From the IMG/VR virus record IMGVR_UViG_2740892426_000003: DNA of 34,274 nucleotides. The stretch is one strand, 5' to 3'. The stretch is from a virus (Duplodnaviria > Heunggongvirae > Uroviricota > Caudoviricetes). A program made the position numbers and the translations under genes. The notes under the pieces were generated by a model that was not told the origin of the DNA, did no database searches, and worked only from the letters and a program-made list of their open reading frames with translations. Of this stretch, positions 4,572 to 25,933 are shown piece after piece. The first letter of the stretch is position 1. Each line of letters begins with the position of its first letter.

Positions 4572-4802
4572 TTACGCGATTTTCTGCTTTTGCAGAAATT
4601 GCCCGCGTGTGGATAGCGGGATGTGTATCTTAGGATTCGGGCAACCGCTCGGTACCACTGTTCCCATCACGGTTTCCATTGCGATAAATGAAAACGAACA
4701 GTTAACGTTTTTGCACTGGTAATAGAGCTTACGTACCAGCGGTGACATATATTCGCTGCTGCGAATTATCGCCTTACCGTCGCAGTGTGGGCATTTCATC
4801 AT
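4572..4802 (-). CDS. ogr: Ogr/Delta-family zinc-finger late transcription activator
   Basis: MMKCPHCDGKAIIRSSEYMSPLVRKLYYQCKNVNCSFSF has the CxxC...CxxxxC zinc-finger of P2 Ogr. Start set at the ATG-ATG pair preceded by AAGGAGA; the ORF-track start at 4820 is probably an upstream overextension. Confidence 0.85.
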   Translation of the reverse strand: MMKCPHCDGKAIIRSSEYMSPLVRKLYYQCKNVNCSFSFIAMETVMGTVVPSGCPNPKIHIPLSTRGQFLQKQKIA

Positions 4803-4838
4803 GTCCTGTCTCCTTACCACTTTTAACTAACTGAAACA

Positions 4839-5045
4839 CTAACGCTTTTCGTTAACGGACTGACGAAATAGTGTGATGCCGTTCAAAAAAATGATTCTTG
4901 CCATGCTGGACATCGAACGGTTCTGATCCAGCGCTAATGCTTCCAGTTCCGCGATTTCAGCGGGGAGCAGGCGCATTGCCACCGGTTTGTTCGACATCAC
5001 CCCGCGAGGCGCTCTTGAGCGTAAGACGTTCTCATTTGTTTTCAT
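4839..5045 (-). CDS. small ribbon-helix-helix (CopG/Arc-like) DNA-binding protein, first gene of the leftward ogr-primase transcription unit
   Basis: 68-aa ORF 18 nt upstream of ogr. VAMRLLPAEIAELEALA...RSMSSMARIIF looks like an RHH beta-strand plus helices. Divergent from the HTH gene across an 80-bp control region. Start may be internal. Confidence 0.5.
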   Translation of the reverse strand: MKTNENVLRSRAPRGVMSNKPVAMRLLPAEIAELEALALDQNRSMSSMARIIFLNGITLFRQSVNEKR

Positions 5046-5125
5046 GGTGGTATATTGTGGTTATTAACATTACACAATCTATAATTCCCTCAATTGAGTG
5101 AATTGTCAATGGTAATTATATCCAA

Positions 5126-5461
5126 ATGAAAGAATTTGGCATCCGTTTGAAGGAAGAACGTATCCGACTTGGACTTGATCAAGACGGCTTTGGACAACTT
5201 GGGGGCGTGAAGAAAAACGCACAAAGCAACTATGAGAATGGGTTGCGCAAGCCGGACAGTGACTATCTTGCTGGCATAGCGGCAGCGGGAGTTGATGTTC
5301 TGTATGTTCTAACAGGCAACCGCACGCCTGTGGTTACGTTGTCCAGTAAAGAGAGTGTGTTGGTGGAAAACTATCGTTCTGCTACGCCAGAACACCAGTC
5401 CACCCTTGACACGGTTAGCGCTGCGCTTGCGCAACCGATGAATTGTCGAAAAGTACAATGA
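5126..5461 (+). CDS. XRE-family helix-turn-helix transcriptional regulator (possible prophage repressor)
   Basis: 111-aa ORF; N-terminal GIRLKEERIRLGLDQDGFGQLGGVKKNAQSNYENGLRKPDSDYLAGIAAAGVDVLYVLTG is a Cro/C1-type HTH. First gene of a three-gene plus-strand operon. Confidence 0.75.
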   Translation: MKEFGIRLKEERIRLGLDQDGFGQLGGVKKNAQSNYENGLRKPDSDYLAGIAAAGVDVLYVLTGNRTPVVTLSSKESVLVENYRSATPEHQSTLDTVSAALAQPMNCRKVQ

Positions 5462-5491
5462 TTTATTAAATTCAGCTTATTAGGAGTAATT

Positions 5492-6580
5492 ATGGCAAAT
5501 GTCGGCTTTTCTTTTGAGGGGGTGATGATTGAAAGAATTATTGCTCATCGAATCTTCCCAAGGTCTCCCGATAAGCAAATGGTTCCACCTAAGTTAAGTA
5601 ATCAGTTAATAACGTTAGAACAAGATGCTTTGGATGCACTACAGGTTCGTATAACAGAAGCCTTAGGTAATAAATCTCATGGCATTGAAATGTCTATCAC
5701 TGATACCGGTGATGATAGTTTTTTTGCACTGACAACGTCTGTACTACATGTTGAAGGCGAATCATTTATTAACGTATCTAAGCGATTGGCGCATAAGTTA
5801 ACAGAAGCTCAATATAGTGCGGGGAAGGTTTCCGGTGGTGTGTTAGTAATCATTACGGGAAAAATTGGTGAACAAGCCTGCCCATTCTTTGCTGTACTGC
5901 GTGCTGAAATGCAAAACGGATTTCGGACCAATGATACCCCAGAGAAAATAGCGATGGAGTATATTGCTGACTTATTACTTACACCAACTCAGCGGCTTTA
6001 TAAAATAGGAGTGTTGATTGAGTGTGAGTCAGGCCATGAATTGATTGATGGTCGTTGTGATACGCAATATTATCGTTCATTTTTATTTGATCACTTGATG
6101 ACATCGACGGAAACTAAAAATGCTGCGGGGTATTTTTACAGTGTTTTTCTTGGAATGGGGATCGAAAAATCCTCCAAGAAATTGACGCAGGATTTTTTTG
6201 AACATACTCGAAATTTCATTAATCAGGCTCCAGTTGATGAGGAAACTAAGTTTGATTTACACGAGTCATTACGTTCTGAACTGAGAAGTCAGAAAGCAAC
6301 TTTGAGTACCGCTTCGTTTGCTACGGAACATCTTCCTCAAGAATTACAGACGAGCTATCAGTCATTTATGGCTCAAAAAGGTTTTCCGCAGAATGCAGTG
6401 TCTAAAGATACTGATTATATTAAGAAAAAGCTTCGTCGTAGAAGTAAATTAGTGTTTACAAGCGATGTATGGATATCCATACCACCAGATCAAGTAAAAG
6501 AACTGGTACAGATTGAACAAACAGATGATGATGAGTCAACTACACTTAAAGTCAAAGGGCGGTTGAAAAGTCAAGAATGA
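5492..6580 (+). CDS. NA37/YejK (NdpA)-like nucleoid-associated-protein-family protein; candidate DNA-binding sensor or antitoxin component
   Basis: 362-aa ORF with RBS TAGGAG upstream. By-eye similarity to E. coli YejK recalled from memory: I..H.I near the N-terminus, a GG-hydrophobic stretch (SGGVLVIITG), FLGMG...DFF, and C-terminal F..KG...TL.VKG. Very AT-rich relative to flanking phage genes. Stop overlaps the next start (ATGA). Confidence 0.55.
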   Translation: MANVGFSFEGVMIERIIAHRIFPRSPDKQMVPPKLSNQLITLEQDALDALQVRITEALGNKSHGIEMSITDTGDDSFFALTTSVLHVEGESFINVSKRLAHKLTEAQYSAGKVSGGVLVIITGKIGEQACPFFAVLRAEMQNGFRTNDTPEKIAMEYIADLLLTPTQRLYKIGVLIECESGHELIDGRCDTQYYRSFLFDHLMTSTETKNAAGYFYSVFLGMGIEKSSKKLTQDFFEHTRNFINQAPVDEETKFDLHESLRSELRSQKATLSTASFATEHLPQELQTSYQSFMAQKGFPQNAVSKDTDYIKKKLRRRSKLVFTSDVWISIPPDQVKELVQIEQTDDDESTTLKVKGRLKSQE

Positions 6581-7578
6581 TGAGTATAGAGGATTTTAGA
6601 CGTTATCTGGTTGAAAACCATGCTGCTTATGAAGCATGGGGTAAACATATTGCGTCTGAAATCAATGCGGCTTTGATTGAACAACTTGGTGAAGGGGCCG
6701 CCCAGCTCTTCATCAAGGTACCACCCACTCCGAGAGTTAAAGGTATCGAGTCCGCATTAGGGAAGGTTGGTCGTAAAGGTTATAACAACCCTGTTCAGCA
6801 GATGACGGATCTCGTTGGCGTTCGTTTTGTCGTTTTACTTTCTGAAGATATTGAGACAATCTGTAAAATCATTCAGAATAATGAACAATGGATAGCTGTT
6901 GTTTCTAAAGATTATCAGGATGAAATAGAGGTAAACCCTAAACTATTTGATTATCAATCAAAGCATTTTGAAATAAGGCCAAAGATAAATAGCGTTATAT
7001 CGGGAGTTAATATTACAACTGATATGTGCTGTGAAGTACAAATTAGAACATTATTGCAGCATGCGTATGCAGAATTAGTTCATGATAGCGTTTATAAACC
7101 TGTTGGCCCCGTACCGAAAAAAGCGGAGCGCCAAATTGCGCGTAGTATGGCTTTGATGGAAACAACAGATGAATTATTTTGTAATACAATGCGGCTTTTA
7201 TGTGATACTAATAAACCAAGAAATGATTTTTTAAAGGAGTTAAAAGATTTTTATATAAATAAAATTGGGAGGCAGTATTTAAATCAGGAAGATAAAATAA
7301 ATTATTGTTTTTTAGATGAGTATAGGTCGTTTATACAAGAAGATCTTTTGACTAATCTAATCGACCTTCTTGATAAGAAAAAATATATATCATATAAAAT
7401 CCAACAAAGGGCTACTGCCAATCTTTTTTTTGCGCAGCCAGTGGTCATTTTTACTTACTGGCTGGCAATAAATGAAGACAGTAATAAATTACAGCAAGAA
7501 TGGCCGTTACCTGGATATTTGAACGAATTGAGAATGATTTTAAGTGATGTTGGTGTAAGTAGCGGTATTGGATATTAA
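6577..7578 (+). CDS. RelA/SpoT-homologue nucleotidyltransferase (small-alarmone-synthetase/toxSAS-like) with ~150-aa C-terminal extension
   Basis: 333-aa ORF. Synthetase-domain motifs are visible: PRVKGIESALGKVGRKG, TDLVGVRFVV, and CEVQIRTLLQHAYAE (the E-[IV]-Q-I-R-T...H...AE signature). C-terminal third is K/N-rich, AT-rich and unassigned. Translationally coupled to the upstream gene. Confidence 0.8.
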   Translation: MMSIEDFRRYLVENHAAYEAWGKHIASEINAALIEQLGEGAAQLFIKVPPTPRVKGIESALGKVGRKGYNNPVQQMTDLVGVRFVVLLSEDIETICKIIQNNEQWIAVVSKDYQDEIEVNPKLFDYQSKHFEIRPKINSVISGVNITTDMCCEVQIRTLLQHAYAELVHDSVYKPVGPVPKKAERQIARSMALMETTDELFCNTMRLLCDTNKPRNDFLKELKDFYINKIGRQYLNQEDKINYCFLDEYRSFIQEDLLTNLIDLLDKKKYISYKIQQRATANLFFAQPVVIFTYWLAINEDSNKLQQEWPLPGYLNELRMILSDVGVSSGIGY

Positions 7579-8681
7579 TCTTCCAGCCCCAACTCACACT
7601 CCACCGCCGTCCCATACCCACTGCTGTTATCCAACGTATGCACACACCGCGTAATCACCCACGCGGTGCCGTCAATCTCCGCCTTAAACCCCTTAACCTG
7701 CAGTGGTAATTCCGGGAACAAATCGGGCCGTCCACGCGCAAGATTCAGGCTGAACGTTGCCGCGCCGCGCTGTAATTGCTCCCACGCGCTTTTTGCCGCC
7801 CGGTAGGCGTTATTTTTGTTGGCATAGGTGTGGCGCAACACCTTGATATTTCCCTCTTCGCCTACCATCACGTTATCGGCGTTGAATGAGGCGTCTGATG
7901 GGGGAGATTCCGTTGGTTGCGTTTGCGGACGATTTTTCCGTGTCTTGCGCTTCACGTCAGTGGACTGCTTTTTAGCCTGCCGCGTATCCAGCCAGTAGGC
8001 CGTAACGCCGGTATAGGCTTCCCTGTCCGCGATGCTGAACCGGTGACTGTCGCCGTCCTCGCGGGTAATGGTTGCGACCGGCAGCGGCTTTCCGCTGGCG
8101 CTTTTACCGGAACCTGTCGGCATCAGTAACAGAGCATCATTTTTCACGCAGGCGATAGCGCCGTGCATTTGCGCCAGCCGGGTCAGGAAGGAGGCATCGG
8201 ATTCGTTAGTCTGGTCAACGTGCTCAATGGCGATCCCAGCCAGCTCGCCGCTGACGGTTGATTCCAGCTTATGGCGCGCCGCCACGGTTTGCACAATCGC
8301 GCCCAGCGTCACATCATGGTAGCTCTGTTCCCGTTTAACGTTCAGCGAATCGCGGAAATCGGCGCTGCGGGCGCGGAGGCTGAGTACGTCCGGTGCGCCG
8401 CTGTGCTCCAGTTCGTCCACGGTGAAGACATTCTGGTGCATCACGCCGTCACCCTTCCAGCCCAGAGAAACCGTTAGCTTTTCGCCCTTTGCCGGAAACG
8501 CCAGCAGGCCGTCGCTGTCGTCCAGTTCGAGCTGCAGTTCGTCGGCCTCAAAGCCCCGGTTGTCGGTGATACGCAGGCTGATTAAGCGGTTGTCCAGATT
8601 CCGCGTAATGTCCTTACCATTCAGCACCACGCTGTACTCCGGCTGCGGTTGGGCGTTTAAGAGTGCGTTTAACATCGTCAT
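7575..8681 (-). CDS. D: tail protein D (late control gene D, P2 gpD-like)
   Basis: 368-aa ORF at the 3' end of the E-T-U-D tail operon; gene order and length as in P2. Confidence 0.85.
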   Translation of the reverse strand: MTMLNALLNAQPQPEYSVVLNGKDITRNLDNRLISLRITDNRGFEADELQLELDDSDGLLAFPAKGEKLTVSLGWKGDGVMHQNVFTVDELEHSGAPDVLSLRARSADFRDSLNVKREQSYHDVTLGAIVQTVAARHKLESTVSGELAGIAIEHVDQTNESDASFLTRLAQMHGAIACVKNDALLLMPTGSGKSASGKPLPVATITREDGDSHRFSIADREAYTGVTAYWLDTRQAKKQSTDVKRKTRKNRPQTQPTESPPSDASFNADNVMVGEEGNIKVLRHTYANKNNAYRAAKSAWEQLQRGAATFSLNLARGRPDLFPELPLQVKGFKAEIDGTAWVITRCVHTLDNSSGYGTAVECELGLED

Positions 8682-14204: not shown

Positions 14205-14963
14205 TTAATTCAGGATAATCAATTCTGATGTGGTGCTGGCTGGCTTTCCACCTACAGTATAGCGAATCCCTACCGTTGAAAATGTCAGGCCGTGGAAGAT
14301 ATCGCGCATTTCCGGGATGTCATTAACCGAGATAATCATCCGGCCCTGCATGGTGCGCGCCAGCTCTGCCATACGCTGGTACTGCTCAAGGCCAAATGGT
14401 ACGCCGTAGCCTTCGGTTTTCCAGTATGGCGGGTCGCAGTAGAACAGGGTATGCGGGCGGTCATAGCGGCGAATACAGTCGACCCAGTCCAGATTTTCAA
14501 TACAGACGCGCGCCAGCCGCAGATGGGCGGCGGATAAATCCTCTTCCATACGCAGCAGGTTCAGGCGCGGCGGTGAGGTGGTGGCGGTACCGAACGTGCG
14601 GCTTTCCACCTTACCGCCGAATGCCAGCTTTTGCAGATAGTAGAAGCGCGCCGCGCGCTGGATGTCGGTCAGCGTTTCTTCCGGGGTGATCTGGAGCCAG
14701 CGGTACATTTCGCGACTGACCAGCGACCATTTAAACTGGCGGACAAACTCTTCTAAATGGTGCTGGAGTACGCGGTAGAGGTTGGTAACGTCACCATTGA
14801 TATCGTTCAGCACCTCGGCCTGAGCGGGCTGTTTCATAAAGAACAACGCCGCCGCCCCGCAGAACGGTTCAACGTAGCAGCGGTGTTTGGGAAACAGCGG
14901 CAGAATGTGTTTTGCCAGCCTGCGCTTACCGCCGATCCACGGAATAATGGGTAACGTATTCAT
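14205..14963 (-). CDS. dam: Dam-family N6-adenine DNA methyltransferase (orphan, inside the late tail-fibre operon)
   Basis: 252-aa ORF with SAM-binding FCGAAALF and catalytic DPPY (YCDPPYW). Sits between G and FI, the position of Z/fun in P2. Confidence 0.85.
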   Translation of the reverse strand: MNTLPIIPWIGGKRRLAKHILPLFPKHRCYVEPFCGAAALFFMKQPAQAEVLNDINGDVTNLYRVLQHHLEEFVRQFKWSLVSREMYRWLQITPEETLTDIQRAARFYYLQKLAFGGKVESRTFGTATTSPPRLNLLRMEEDLSAAHLRLARVCIENLDWVDCIRRYDRPHTLFYCDPPYWKTEGYGVPFGLEQYQRMAELARTMQGRMIISVNDIPEMRDIFHGLTFSTVGIRYTVGGKPASTTSELIILN

Positions 14964-24866: not shown

Positions 24867-24918
24867 CGTAATTGCGATGTAATTACAACTACATCATTCT
24901 AAGGATTTTGTAATTACA
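24867..24918 (+). promoter_or_regulatory. operator-like palindromes (2 x TGTAATTACA plus a CGTAATTGCG half-match) upstream of the RHH gene
   Basis: Perfect 10-bp palindromes at about 24878-24887 and 24909-24918, 31 bp centre to centre; the second abuts the ATG. Confidence 0.55.
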
Positions 24919-25089
24919 ATGTCAAGTGAAAAGGCTAAAACAGATCAGTACCAACTTCGTCTTGCTCATGAATTTAGAAAGCAGCTTGAAGAACAGGCTC
25001 GTAAAGATGGAGATACCTCTCTCGCAACATGGATAAAACGCGTTTTGCGTAAGGAACTTCAGTCACGAGGTATTGAACCCAAAGGATAA
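24919..25089 (+). CDS. Arc/MetJ-type ribbon-helix-helix DNA-binding protein (56 aa; below the ORF-track size cutoff)
   Basis: Hand translation MSSEKAKTDQYQLRLAHEFRKQLEEQARKDGDTSLATWIKRVLRKELQSRGIEPKG; the strand-then-two-helices pattern resembles Arc repressor. Confidence 0.65.
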   Translation: MSSEKAKTDQYQLRLAHEFRKQLEEQARKDGDTSLATWIKRVLRKELQSRGIEPKG

Positions 25090-25190
25090 TTACGGAGATA
25101 TCAAGCAGCGCTAAGAAGTTAGGATTATTTGTTCAGCCCAGATTAGTCGATATGCACTGATTAACTTAAACATTGTGTGTAGGAGGTGTT

Positions 25191-25844
25191 GTGGATATTG
25201 AATTTTTTCTTAAAGAGCGCACAAGATTCGTTACTTATTTCTATGAAACGGCTGCTGCACCATTTGTTAACATCATGAATGATATTGAGAATGAAGTGGA
25301 ACCTTATATTCAGCCGTATGGTGAGAGTGATGAACCAGCTTTTTTAGATGAATGGTTAGATGCAAAGTCGGGATTAGAAACCTGTGGGCACCATGCATTA
25401 TCGATGCTTTCGTCTTCTCTTCAGTTGTACCTGAAGGCGTGGGTAGATCGCTTAGGATATCATAGCGTGAAATCTGATATAAATTTCAAGAAGGGTTGGT
25501 TTAATGGCTATCGTGAAATTTTCAACAAAATTGAGTTGGAAATGGCAAAATGTCCTGCAAATTTGGAAATAATTGAACAAATTCCCTTGGTGAGAAATCG
25601 TGTCCAGCATCCTGAGGAACTTACCTCAATTAATATTTCTCACTCAAAAAATGACTTGGAAAAATATCCTCGCCCATACTTTATTCAGGAGTGTGAGCTA
25701 CTTTTGGCTTCCGAACAGGAAGAAAAATCGTGGTTATTCCCACCTACAATATCCCCGACTAAAGAGAAAATATTCGAAGCTATCAGAAATGTTGAAATGC
25801 TGTGCTCTTGGTTAGAGTCTGAGTATTGGTCGGCTCTTGACTAA
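25191..25844 (+). CDS. hypothetical 217-aa protein, AT-rich orphan cargo (candidate effector or toxin partner of the upstream RHH)
   Basis: Start set at GTG 4 nt after a consensus AGGAGG (ORF track begins at TTG 25173). Markedly AT-rich versus the flanking head and lysis genes; no motif recognised. Confidence 0.65.
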   Translation: MDIEFFLKERTRFVTYFYETAAAPFVNIMNDIENEVEPYIQPYGESDEPAFLDEWLDAKSGLETCGHHALSMLSSSLQLYLKAWVDRLGYHSVKSDINFKKGWFNGYREIFNKIELEMAKCPANLEIIEQIPLVRNRVQHPEELTSINISHSKNDLEKYPRPYFIQECELLLASEQEEKSWLFPPTISPTKEKIFEAIRNVEMLCSWLESEYWSALD

Positions 25845-25879
25845 ATGTAGAATAGAGTAAGTCAGCGTCAAATGAAAAC

Positions 25880-25897
25880 AGCCCGACGAATCGGGCT
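25880..25897. terminator. hairpin terminator between convergent cargo genes
   Basis: 7-bp stem AGCCCGA/TCGGGCT with CGAA loop; T-rich on the minus-strand side, A/T-rich on both sides. Confidence 0.45.
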
Positions 25898-25933
25898 ATT
25901 ATGGCTATCAGGCAAACACTACCTTCAAACTCA

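Follow-up and report, generated by a model that had tools for sequence, protein, structure and literature searches.

A putative type I PANGU-like module, an NA37/YejK-family gene coupled to an alarmone synthetase gene, in the cargo of a P2-like Escherichia coli prophage

PANGU is a recently described class of anti-phage operons, bicistronic and based on nucleoid-associated proteins (NAPs) that resemble YejK (bioRxiv preprint, April 2026; 10.64898/2026.04.06.716658). Its mechanism comes from this one preprint, which is not peer reviewed (10.64898/2026.04.06.716658). In type I PANGU, the NAP Pag1A is paired with Pag1B, a toxSAS of the GRel subfamily in which a helical linker joins a toxSYNTH domain to a C-terminal 'DMK' domain, an acidic DNA mimic (10.64898/2026.04.06.716658). 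Two type I systems, PANGU-Ff (F. futtsuensis) and PANGU-Pa (P. aeruginosa), were tested, and genetic, biochemical, cryo-EM, ChIP-seq and microscopy evidence was given for both (10.64898/2026.04.06.716658). Defence against T4 depends on both genes, and in the absence of phage neither gene by itself nor the pair is toxic (10.64898/2026.04.06.716658). Specifically, Pag1B alone is an inactive tetramer, and a Pag1A dimer binds its C-terminal domain with a KD of 9 nM, giving a 2:1 complex seen by cryo-EM (10.64898/2026.04.06.716658). Pag1A binding turns on pppGpp synthesis from ATP and GTP, with no labelling of tRNA (10.64898/2026.04.06.716658). Pag1A binds only DNA of at least about 400 bp and coats the chromosome, which it clamps until phage nucleases degrade the host DNA and set it free; it departs from the nucleoid during infection (10.64898/2026.04.06.716658). 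Mutations in denA (EndoII) that keep the host DNA from being degraded allow T4 to escape, and a Pag1A that is dead for DNA binding makes the pair toxic (10.64898/2026.04.06.716658). The activated heterotrimer aborts infection, and Pag1A is a sensor and activator, not an antitoxin (10.64898/2026.04.06.716658). Additionally, SLATT genes are present in some Cluster 1 operons (10.64898/2026.04.06.716658).

The window analysed here, a DNA stretch of 34,274 nt, is a P2-like E. coli prophage with genes for integrase, toprim primase, Ogr, gpD, gpU, tape measure, tube, sheath and terminase. A near-identical prophage adjoins guaA in E. coli L725. The GC content falls to 38-43% at 5-8 kb, versus about 55% in the flanks, and this region contains a 2.2-kb exchangeable cargo segment (5438-7612) that carries an NA37-family gene and a RelA/SpoT-type (Rel) gene (Table 1). 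An earlier sequence-only reading had described the first gene as a diverged YejK/NdpA-type copy in phage cargo DNA that overlaps a downstream toxSAS-like gene. The prophage genes, the low GC and the exchangeable segment bear out the cargo location, and the ATGA overlap and the RelA_SpoT domain of the second product bear out the coupling. By analogy with the described systems, this prophage cargo would be an abortive-infection module of the type I PANGU-like kind, made up of the two genes, a reading to which we give a probability of roughly 0.75.

Table 1. Features of the prophage cargo region and its switch (positions in the window)
Feature	Position	Strand	Basis or remark
Arc-like repressor gene, heads ogr/primase operon	4839..5045	-	phrog_3431 E 4e-24; weak RHH_5 match
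XRE/CI-type HTH gene	5126..5461	+	HTH_3/HTH_31, phage repressor PHROGs; 30 nt upstream of NA37 gene
Exchangeable cargo segment	5438..7612	.	blastn vs sister prophages L002/L003: homology ends at 5437, resumes at 7613; low GC
Diverged NA37/YejK-family nucleoid-associated protein, Pag1A-like sensor (putative)	5492..6580	+	362 aa, 40.8 kDa; Pfam, AF2, PHROG
Stop/start overlap ATGA, 4 nt, NA37 gene / Rel gene	6577..6580	+	read in sequence
Small alarmone synthetase, toxSAS-type, Pag1B-like effector (putative)	6577..7578	+	333 aa, 38.4 kDa; RelA_SpoT, AF2, PHROG
C-terminal helical domain of effector (residues 213-333)	7213..7575	+	all-helical in AF2 model

Two other observations were made elsewhere in the window. 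A second low-GC (40%) island at 24900-25900, amid the late genes, carries a 56-aa and a 223-aa ORF on the strand opposite to their neighbours; the 223-aa ORF matched phrog_28203 (unknown function), had no Pfam or PADLOC match and may be another cargo or defence gene. In addition, a gene for an orphan Dam-like DNA adenine methyltransferase (14205-14963, minus strand; PADLOC MTase_II, 380 bits) lies between the tail sheath and tail-fibre genes, and no adjacent restriction gene was seen.

The 362-aa protein belongs to the NA37/YejK family, of which it is a strongly diverged copy. Its gene starts with ATG and is preceded by an AGGAG ribosome-binding site, and the product is identical to RefSeq WP_074388881.1 ('nucleoid-associated protein') of E. 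coli L725. The Pfam NA37 profile (PF04245; family also IPR007358) matched residues 17-356 over profile positions 1-319 of 325 (E 9.5e-15); the score of 55.2 bits lies above the cut-off of 24.6 bits. An AF2 model built from 54 homologues (mean pLDDT 80.9) had E. coli YejK (9BE2) as its sole significant PDB match (E 1.2e-8, probability 1.00; TM 0.49/0.52 over 352 columns, 14% identity). The pairwise comparisons with YejK were not significant, by BLASTP of the protein or by hhalign of the 54-sequence profile (E 0.029); it is thus the Pfam HMM and the structure on which the family assignment is based. The sequence-only reading had made this call by eye, had named it as its weakest link and would have dropped it if neither an NA37 profile match nor structural similarity had turned up; both were found, and the low similarity to YejK confirmed the divergence that it had noticed. 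However, its view of YejK/NdpA proteins as normally chromosomal is too simple, because MGE-borne NdpA homologues were already known, for example from ICE PAPI-1 (NdpA2, regulatory) and the Pseudomonas phages PseuP_222/224, and 47% of YejK-like NAPs are in operons (10.64898/2026.04.06.716658).

Among the relatives of the NA37 protein, 144 homologues of about 360 aa were collected, and 22 columns were at least 80% K/R across the 54 homologues aligned, an indirect hint at the sequence-nonspecific dsDNA binding, as a dimeric clamp, that would be expected of the family. The protein matched phrog_1974 at full length (E 2e-71), whereas phmmer with it against PDB sequences gave no match. Among phage databases, megablast and tblastn against 50,697 phage records gave none, and BFVD gave one structural match, without a name. 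PADLOC had no model for the NA37 protein, and there was no specific model in NCBIfam. The exact NA37 and Rel sequences were found on 253 and 202 contigs, respectively, and all organism-named members were E. coli. The DefensePredictor supplementary table lists the 362-aa WP_210171975.1 as a 'putative novel defense gene'; WP_074388881.1 is in the same row, apparently as the cluster representative. The YejK-domain system validated by the DefensePredictor authors is a protein other than WP_074388881.1.

The second gene encodes a product identical to RefSeq WP_232565499.1 ('GTP pyrophosphokinase') of E. coli L725, with a RelA_SpoT domain (PF04607, E 1.7e-18) and a full-length match to phrog_32462 (E 9e-129). 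In the AF2 model (pLDDT 89.1), a synthetase domain (residues 1-180) is followed by a helical linker (about 181-212) and a helical C-terminal domain (213-324, pLDDT >90). Eleven residues of the synthetase (R53, K55, D78, G81, R83, Y126, S128, H130, E153, Q155 and R157) were invariant in 51 homologues, with the G-loop Tyr126 lying in a YQSKH motif, and the catalytic core is, judged from these residues, intact. Residues 1-205 matched the RelQ/RelP structures (5DEC, 6FGK and 6EWZ) with E values from 4e-9 to 4e-8 and TMt of 0.77-0.84; CapRel (7ZTB) was also a significant match but a weaker one (E 1e-5). The SAS fold of the model thus resembles RelQ/RelP, which make alarmones, more than CapRel, which modifies tRNA. 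The PADLOC profile PDC-S33 matched at positions 52-176 of 349 only (E 1e-13), which is the shared catalytic core, and not over its full length.

The C-terminal domain diverges faster than the catalytic domain (mean identity 42% vs 65%). Five of its residues (K268, Y294, W309, L311 and D324) were invariant in the 51 homologues, and its WPL motif was kept even in the Clostridium and Klebsiella plasmid homologues. This domain is presumed, by analogy with the 'DMK' domain of the preprint, to be the docking site for the NA37 dimer. The effector length, the gammaproteobacterial host range and the NAP partner are consistent with the GRel subfamily. The net charge of the C-terminal domain by composition is -1 (D+E 13%, K+R 12%), with a range from -7 to +5 in relatives, and such a neutral domain does not obviously fit 'DNA mimicry', which speaks against a full transfer of the PANGU-Ff mechanism. 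Moreover, the PANGU-Ff residues at their quoted positions were present in none of the more than 240 homologues collected; PANGU-Ff therefore probably belongs to another subclade, and details of the interface may not transfer.

The neutral domain and the missing PANGU-Ff residue numbering would also suit an abortive-infection system that differs from PANGU-Ff in its trigger, such as a phage protein or phage DNA, or in its chemistry, such as (pp)pApp synthesis or tRNA pyrophosphorylation. The significant match to CapRel points the same way, as does the finding that PANGU is escaped by T1 and T5, although these phages degrade the DNA of the host (10.64898/2026.04.06.716658). However, RelQ and RelP rank well above CapRel, pppGpp is made without tRNA labelling in the preprint, and the denA-dependent trigger is common to type I and type II systems (10.64898/2026.04.06.716658). 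Such a departure from PANGU-Ff is unlikely in our judgement.

The pairing of the NA37 and Rel genes is nearly obligate. In 18 of the 19 species-representative genomes that have this NA37 subclade, the NA37 gene is followed at 0-18 bp by the start of the Rel gene, and the sole exception is a truncated NA37 match. The identities of the NA37 and Rel proteins to the window copies co-vary (r 0.89-0.95, a measure confounded by shared ancestry), which fits, at the level of sequence, two genes inherited together as a unit. The partner order, with the NA37 gene upstream, and the ATGA coupling resemble toxSAS toxin-antitoxin (TA) operons, and all toxSAS enzymes studied before PANGU were TA toxins. Read in this way, the RelA/SpoT protein would be a constitutively toxic toxSAS of a classical type II TA system, and the NA37 protein would be an antitoxin that is titrated or degraded on infection. 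Neither protein nor the pair is toxic in PANGU-Ff and PANGU-Pa, where the enzyme needs the NAP for activity and loss of DNA binding by the NAP makes the pair toxic. In addition, a domain profile search of the cassette found no antitoxin domain of the known toxSAS types (SAH, Panacea and fused pseudo-ZFD) or of other types; the sole partner is the NA37 protein. We therefore regard a classical TA system as very unlikely. The sequence-only reading had proposed that the NA37 protein was recruited as a sensor or antitoxin: by analogy with Pag1A, which senses host-DNA degradation, the sensor part would hold, whereas the antitoxin part would not, the NAP being an activator in the homologous systems.

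The pair is sporadic: among 5426 complete E. coli genomes, 2 carry it. It occurs in several kinds of location. In favour of a defence role, it occupies classic moron slots: Klebsiella and Enterobacter have it in lambdoid prophages, where it lies between the genes for antiterminator Q and holin, a Pseudomonas copy is in a Mu-like prophage, and the P2-like ogr-gpD slot is the one used here and in Salmonella. In Snodgrassella and Acinetobacter, it lies in plain chromosome. In Dickeya oryzae (L014, 5313-8113), it is part of an element that also encodes a MobA/MobL relaxase and a shufflon protein and in which the Arc-like gene, the switch region, the HTH gene and the NA37-Rel pair have 84% nucleotide identity to the window; this arrangement suggests transfer of the module between MGE types. 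More distant pairs, with 28-32% identity, were found on a Clostridium botulinum C/D phage-plasmid (L039, 4001-6024) and a Klebsiella pneumoniae IncFIB plasmid (L040, 3497-6060), and both keep the 4-nt overlap. A DUF4231 gene, which we take to be of the SLATT type, lies upstream of the Klebsiella IncFIB copy. Further genes were also observed in lambdoid prophages that carry the pair. In Enterobacter ludwigii (L035, 12114-14557), a DarT-Macro (DarTG-like) pair lies 3 kb away, and in Klebsiella (L004, 3414-3707), there is an Acb2/Tad1-hairpin anti-defence-like gene.

This distribution bears on whether the NA37 protein might be an MGE nucleoid protein that regulates or silences prophage genes, as with NdpA2 of ICE PAPI-1, with the synthetase as an unrelated moron neighbour. 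Regulatory MGE-borne NdpA homologues are documented, and in the window a repressor-like HTH gene, at the switch of the prophage, precedes the NA37 gene. However, near-obligate pairing with Rel is seen both in MGEs that are unrelated and at chromosomal sites without a prophage, and the two genes overlap and are co-inherited, which makes a purely regulatory role highly improbable.

The cargo segment begins 24 nt before the stop codon of the HTH gene and ends within the last gpD codons. The stop codons of the effector gene (plus strand) and gpD (minus strand) overlap at 7575-7578 (TTAA), and the cargo is packed against gpD and leaves no room for a terminator between the two genes. A promoter and terminator scan of 4700-7900 gave counts at chance level. 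The HTH gene is 98-99% identical in sister prophages that carry other cargo, is absent from the lambdoid, Mu-like and chromosomal copies and is a pseudogene with indels in Dickeya. As a part of the system, this gene was considered and rejected, because most other loci either lack it or have a pseudogene; it is probably the prophage repressor and the promoter-proximal gene of the operon. The Arc-like gene, which is divergent from it, would be the other arm of a putative switch and is given as context only. By analogy with lambda cI-rexAB, we infer that the promoter of the CI-like HTH gene drives transcription of the pair in the lysogen, as part of an immunity operon. If so, it would serve the prophage as a host-protecting superinfection-exclusion module.

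In sister E. coli prophages, the same slot holds a different NAP cassette of 3.1 kb (L002, 6456-9459; L003, 6456-9458). Its genes encode, in order, a DUF6037 protein, a 382-aa NA37 protein (158 bits) and a 418-aa protein whose N-terminus is acidic and which has TM helices at the C-terminal end; from these features, the cassette appears to be designed like type II PANGU. The effector of L003 is divided between two ORFs, probably by a frameshift. The 382-aa NA37 protein is barely alignable with that of the window (BLASTP E 0.002). We tentatively suggest, while holding it somewhat doubtful, that P2-like prophages keep a slot after the CI-like repressor gene in which NAP genome-integrity sensors are exchanged as alleles, type I toxSAS here and DUF6037 plus type II-like in the sisters. 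In this proposal, PANGU systems would largely be prophage superinfection-exclusion modules expressed from the immunity operon, and the neutral C-terminal domain may engage the NAP by an interface other than DNA mimicry.

For the favoured reading, a type I PANGU-like module, the following course can be proposed by homology with PANGU-Ff and PANGU-Pa. The NA37 dimer would clamp long chromosomal DNA and be held on the nucleoid, while the RelA/SpoT protein would rest as an inactive oligomer. When a superinfecting lytic phage, for example, T4, shreds the host chromosome, the NA37 dimer would be freed and would bind the C-terminal domain of the effector. The resulting 2:1 complex would move pyrophosphate from ATP to GTP, GDP or GMP. 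The (pp)pGpp synthesis would drain NTPs, stop transcription and translation, and block propagation of the invader.

A system of this type was already described in the 2026 preprint, and the E. coli cassette would be a further, prophage-borne member. The word 'prophage' is absent from the preprint (10.64898/2026.04.06.716658). Two observations appear new, namely the position of the cassette just downstream of a repressor-like gene and the type II-like NAP cassette in the same slot of the sister prophages. The sequence-only reading had correctly picked out a putative defence system; its logic, with a nucleoid protein as chromosome-integrity sentinel and an alarmone synthetase turned on by it, was first published in 2026. 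What is added is modest but real: cargo slots of temperate phages, from at least three lineages, are shown to hold putative type I PANGU, and two NAP-based cassettes appear to be exchanged as alleles at one prophage hotspot. Additionally, the cassette offers an E. coli-native and prophage-native copy whose natural promoter context could be tried directly against T-even phages.

Among known proteins and systems, E. coli YejK (9BE2) has the Pfam family and the overall fold in common with the NA37 protein of the window; however, YejK is a standalone, chromosomal housekeeping protein that is universal in E. coli, whereas the window protein is accessory, operonic and MGE-borne. The toxSAS TA modules (FaRel, FaRel2, PhRel and CapRel) are recognized by pairing or fusion with a known antitoxin, and the cassette shows neither. 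RelQ and RelP (SAS1/SAS2) share all catalytic motifs with the window effector but have neither its 120-residue C-terminal domain nor a NAP partner, and they are chromosomal stress-response enzymes. RelQ-type SAS are homotetramers, which resembles the reported resting tetramer of Pag1B.

CapRel-SJ46 is likewise a prophage-carried abortive-infection effector with a RelA/SpoT fold and a regulatory C-terminal region. Unlike the window pair, in which the regulator is a separate NAP, it is a single fused protein that is auto-inhibited in cis, and it is triggered by a phage capsid protein and pyrophosphorylates tRNA. In phage lambda, RexAB is a prophage abortive-infection pair that the lysogen expresses and whose genes lie immediately downstream of that for the immunity repressor. 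Its placement after the repressor gene is like that of the NA37-Rel pair; the proteins are unrelated, and with co-transcription with the HTH gene presumed here, the likeness is one of analogy only.

Type II PANGU (Pag2A NAP and Pag2B) has the sensor family in common with the window cassette, and differs from it in having a membrane protein as effector instead of a nucleotide enzyme. Pag2B has an N-terminal acidic domain and a C-terminal TM domain, the design seen in the sister cassette, which differs from type II PANGU by its extra upstream DUF6037 gene.

From type I PANGU, the E. coli cassette differs in that the effector C-terminal domain is not acidic by composition and in that the cassette sits in a prophage cargo slot. 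In its architecture, the cassette matches type I PANGU when compared by description with PANGU-Ff and PANGU-Pa. Both are bicistronic, with a YejK-like NAP gene followed by a toxSAS gene at a gap of less than 40 bp (here a 4-nt overlap), and both are sporadic, horizontally mobile pairs. The effectors share an N-terminal synthetase with a G-loop Tyr (Y126 here and Y129 in Pag1B-Ff), a helical linker and a C-terminal domain. Moreover, the two proteins are of similar size, with 40.8 and 38.4 kDa here and 40.6 and 37.5 kDa in PANGU-Pa.
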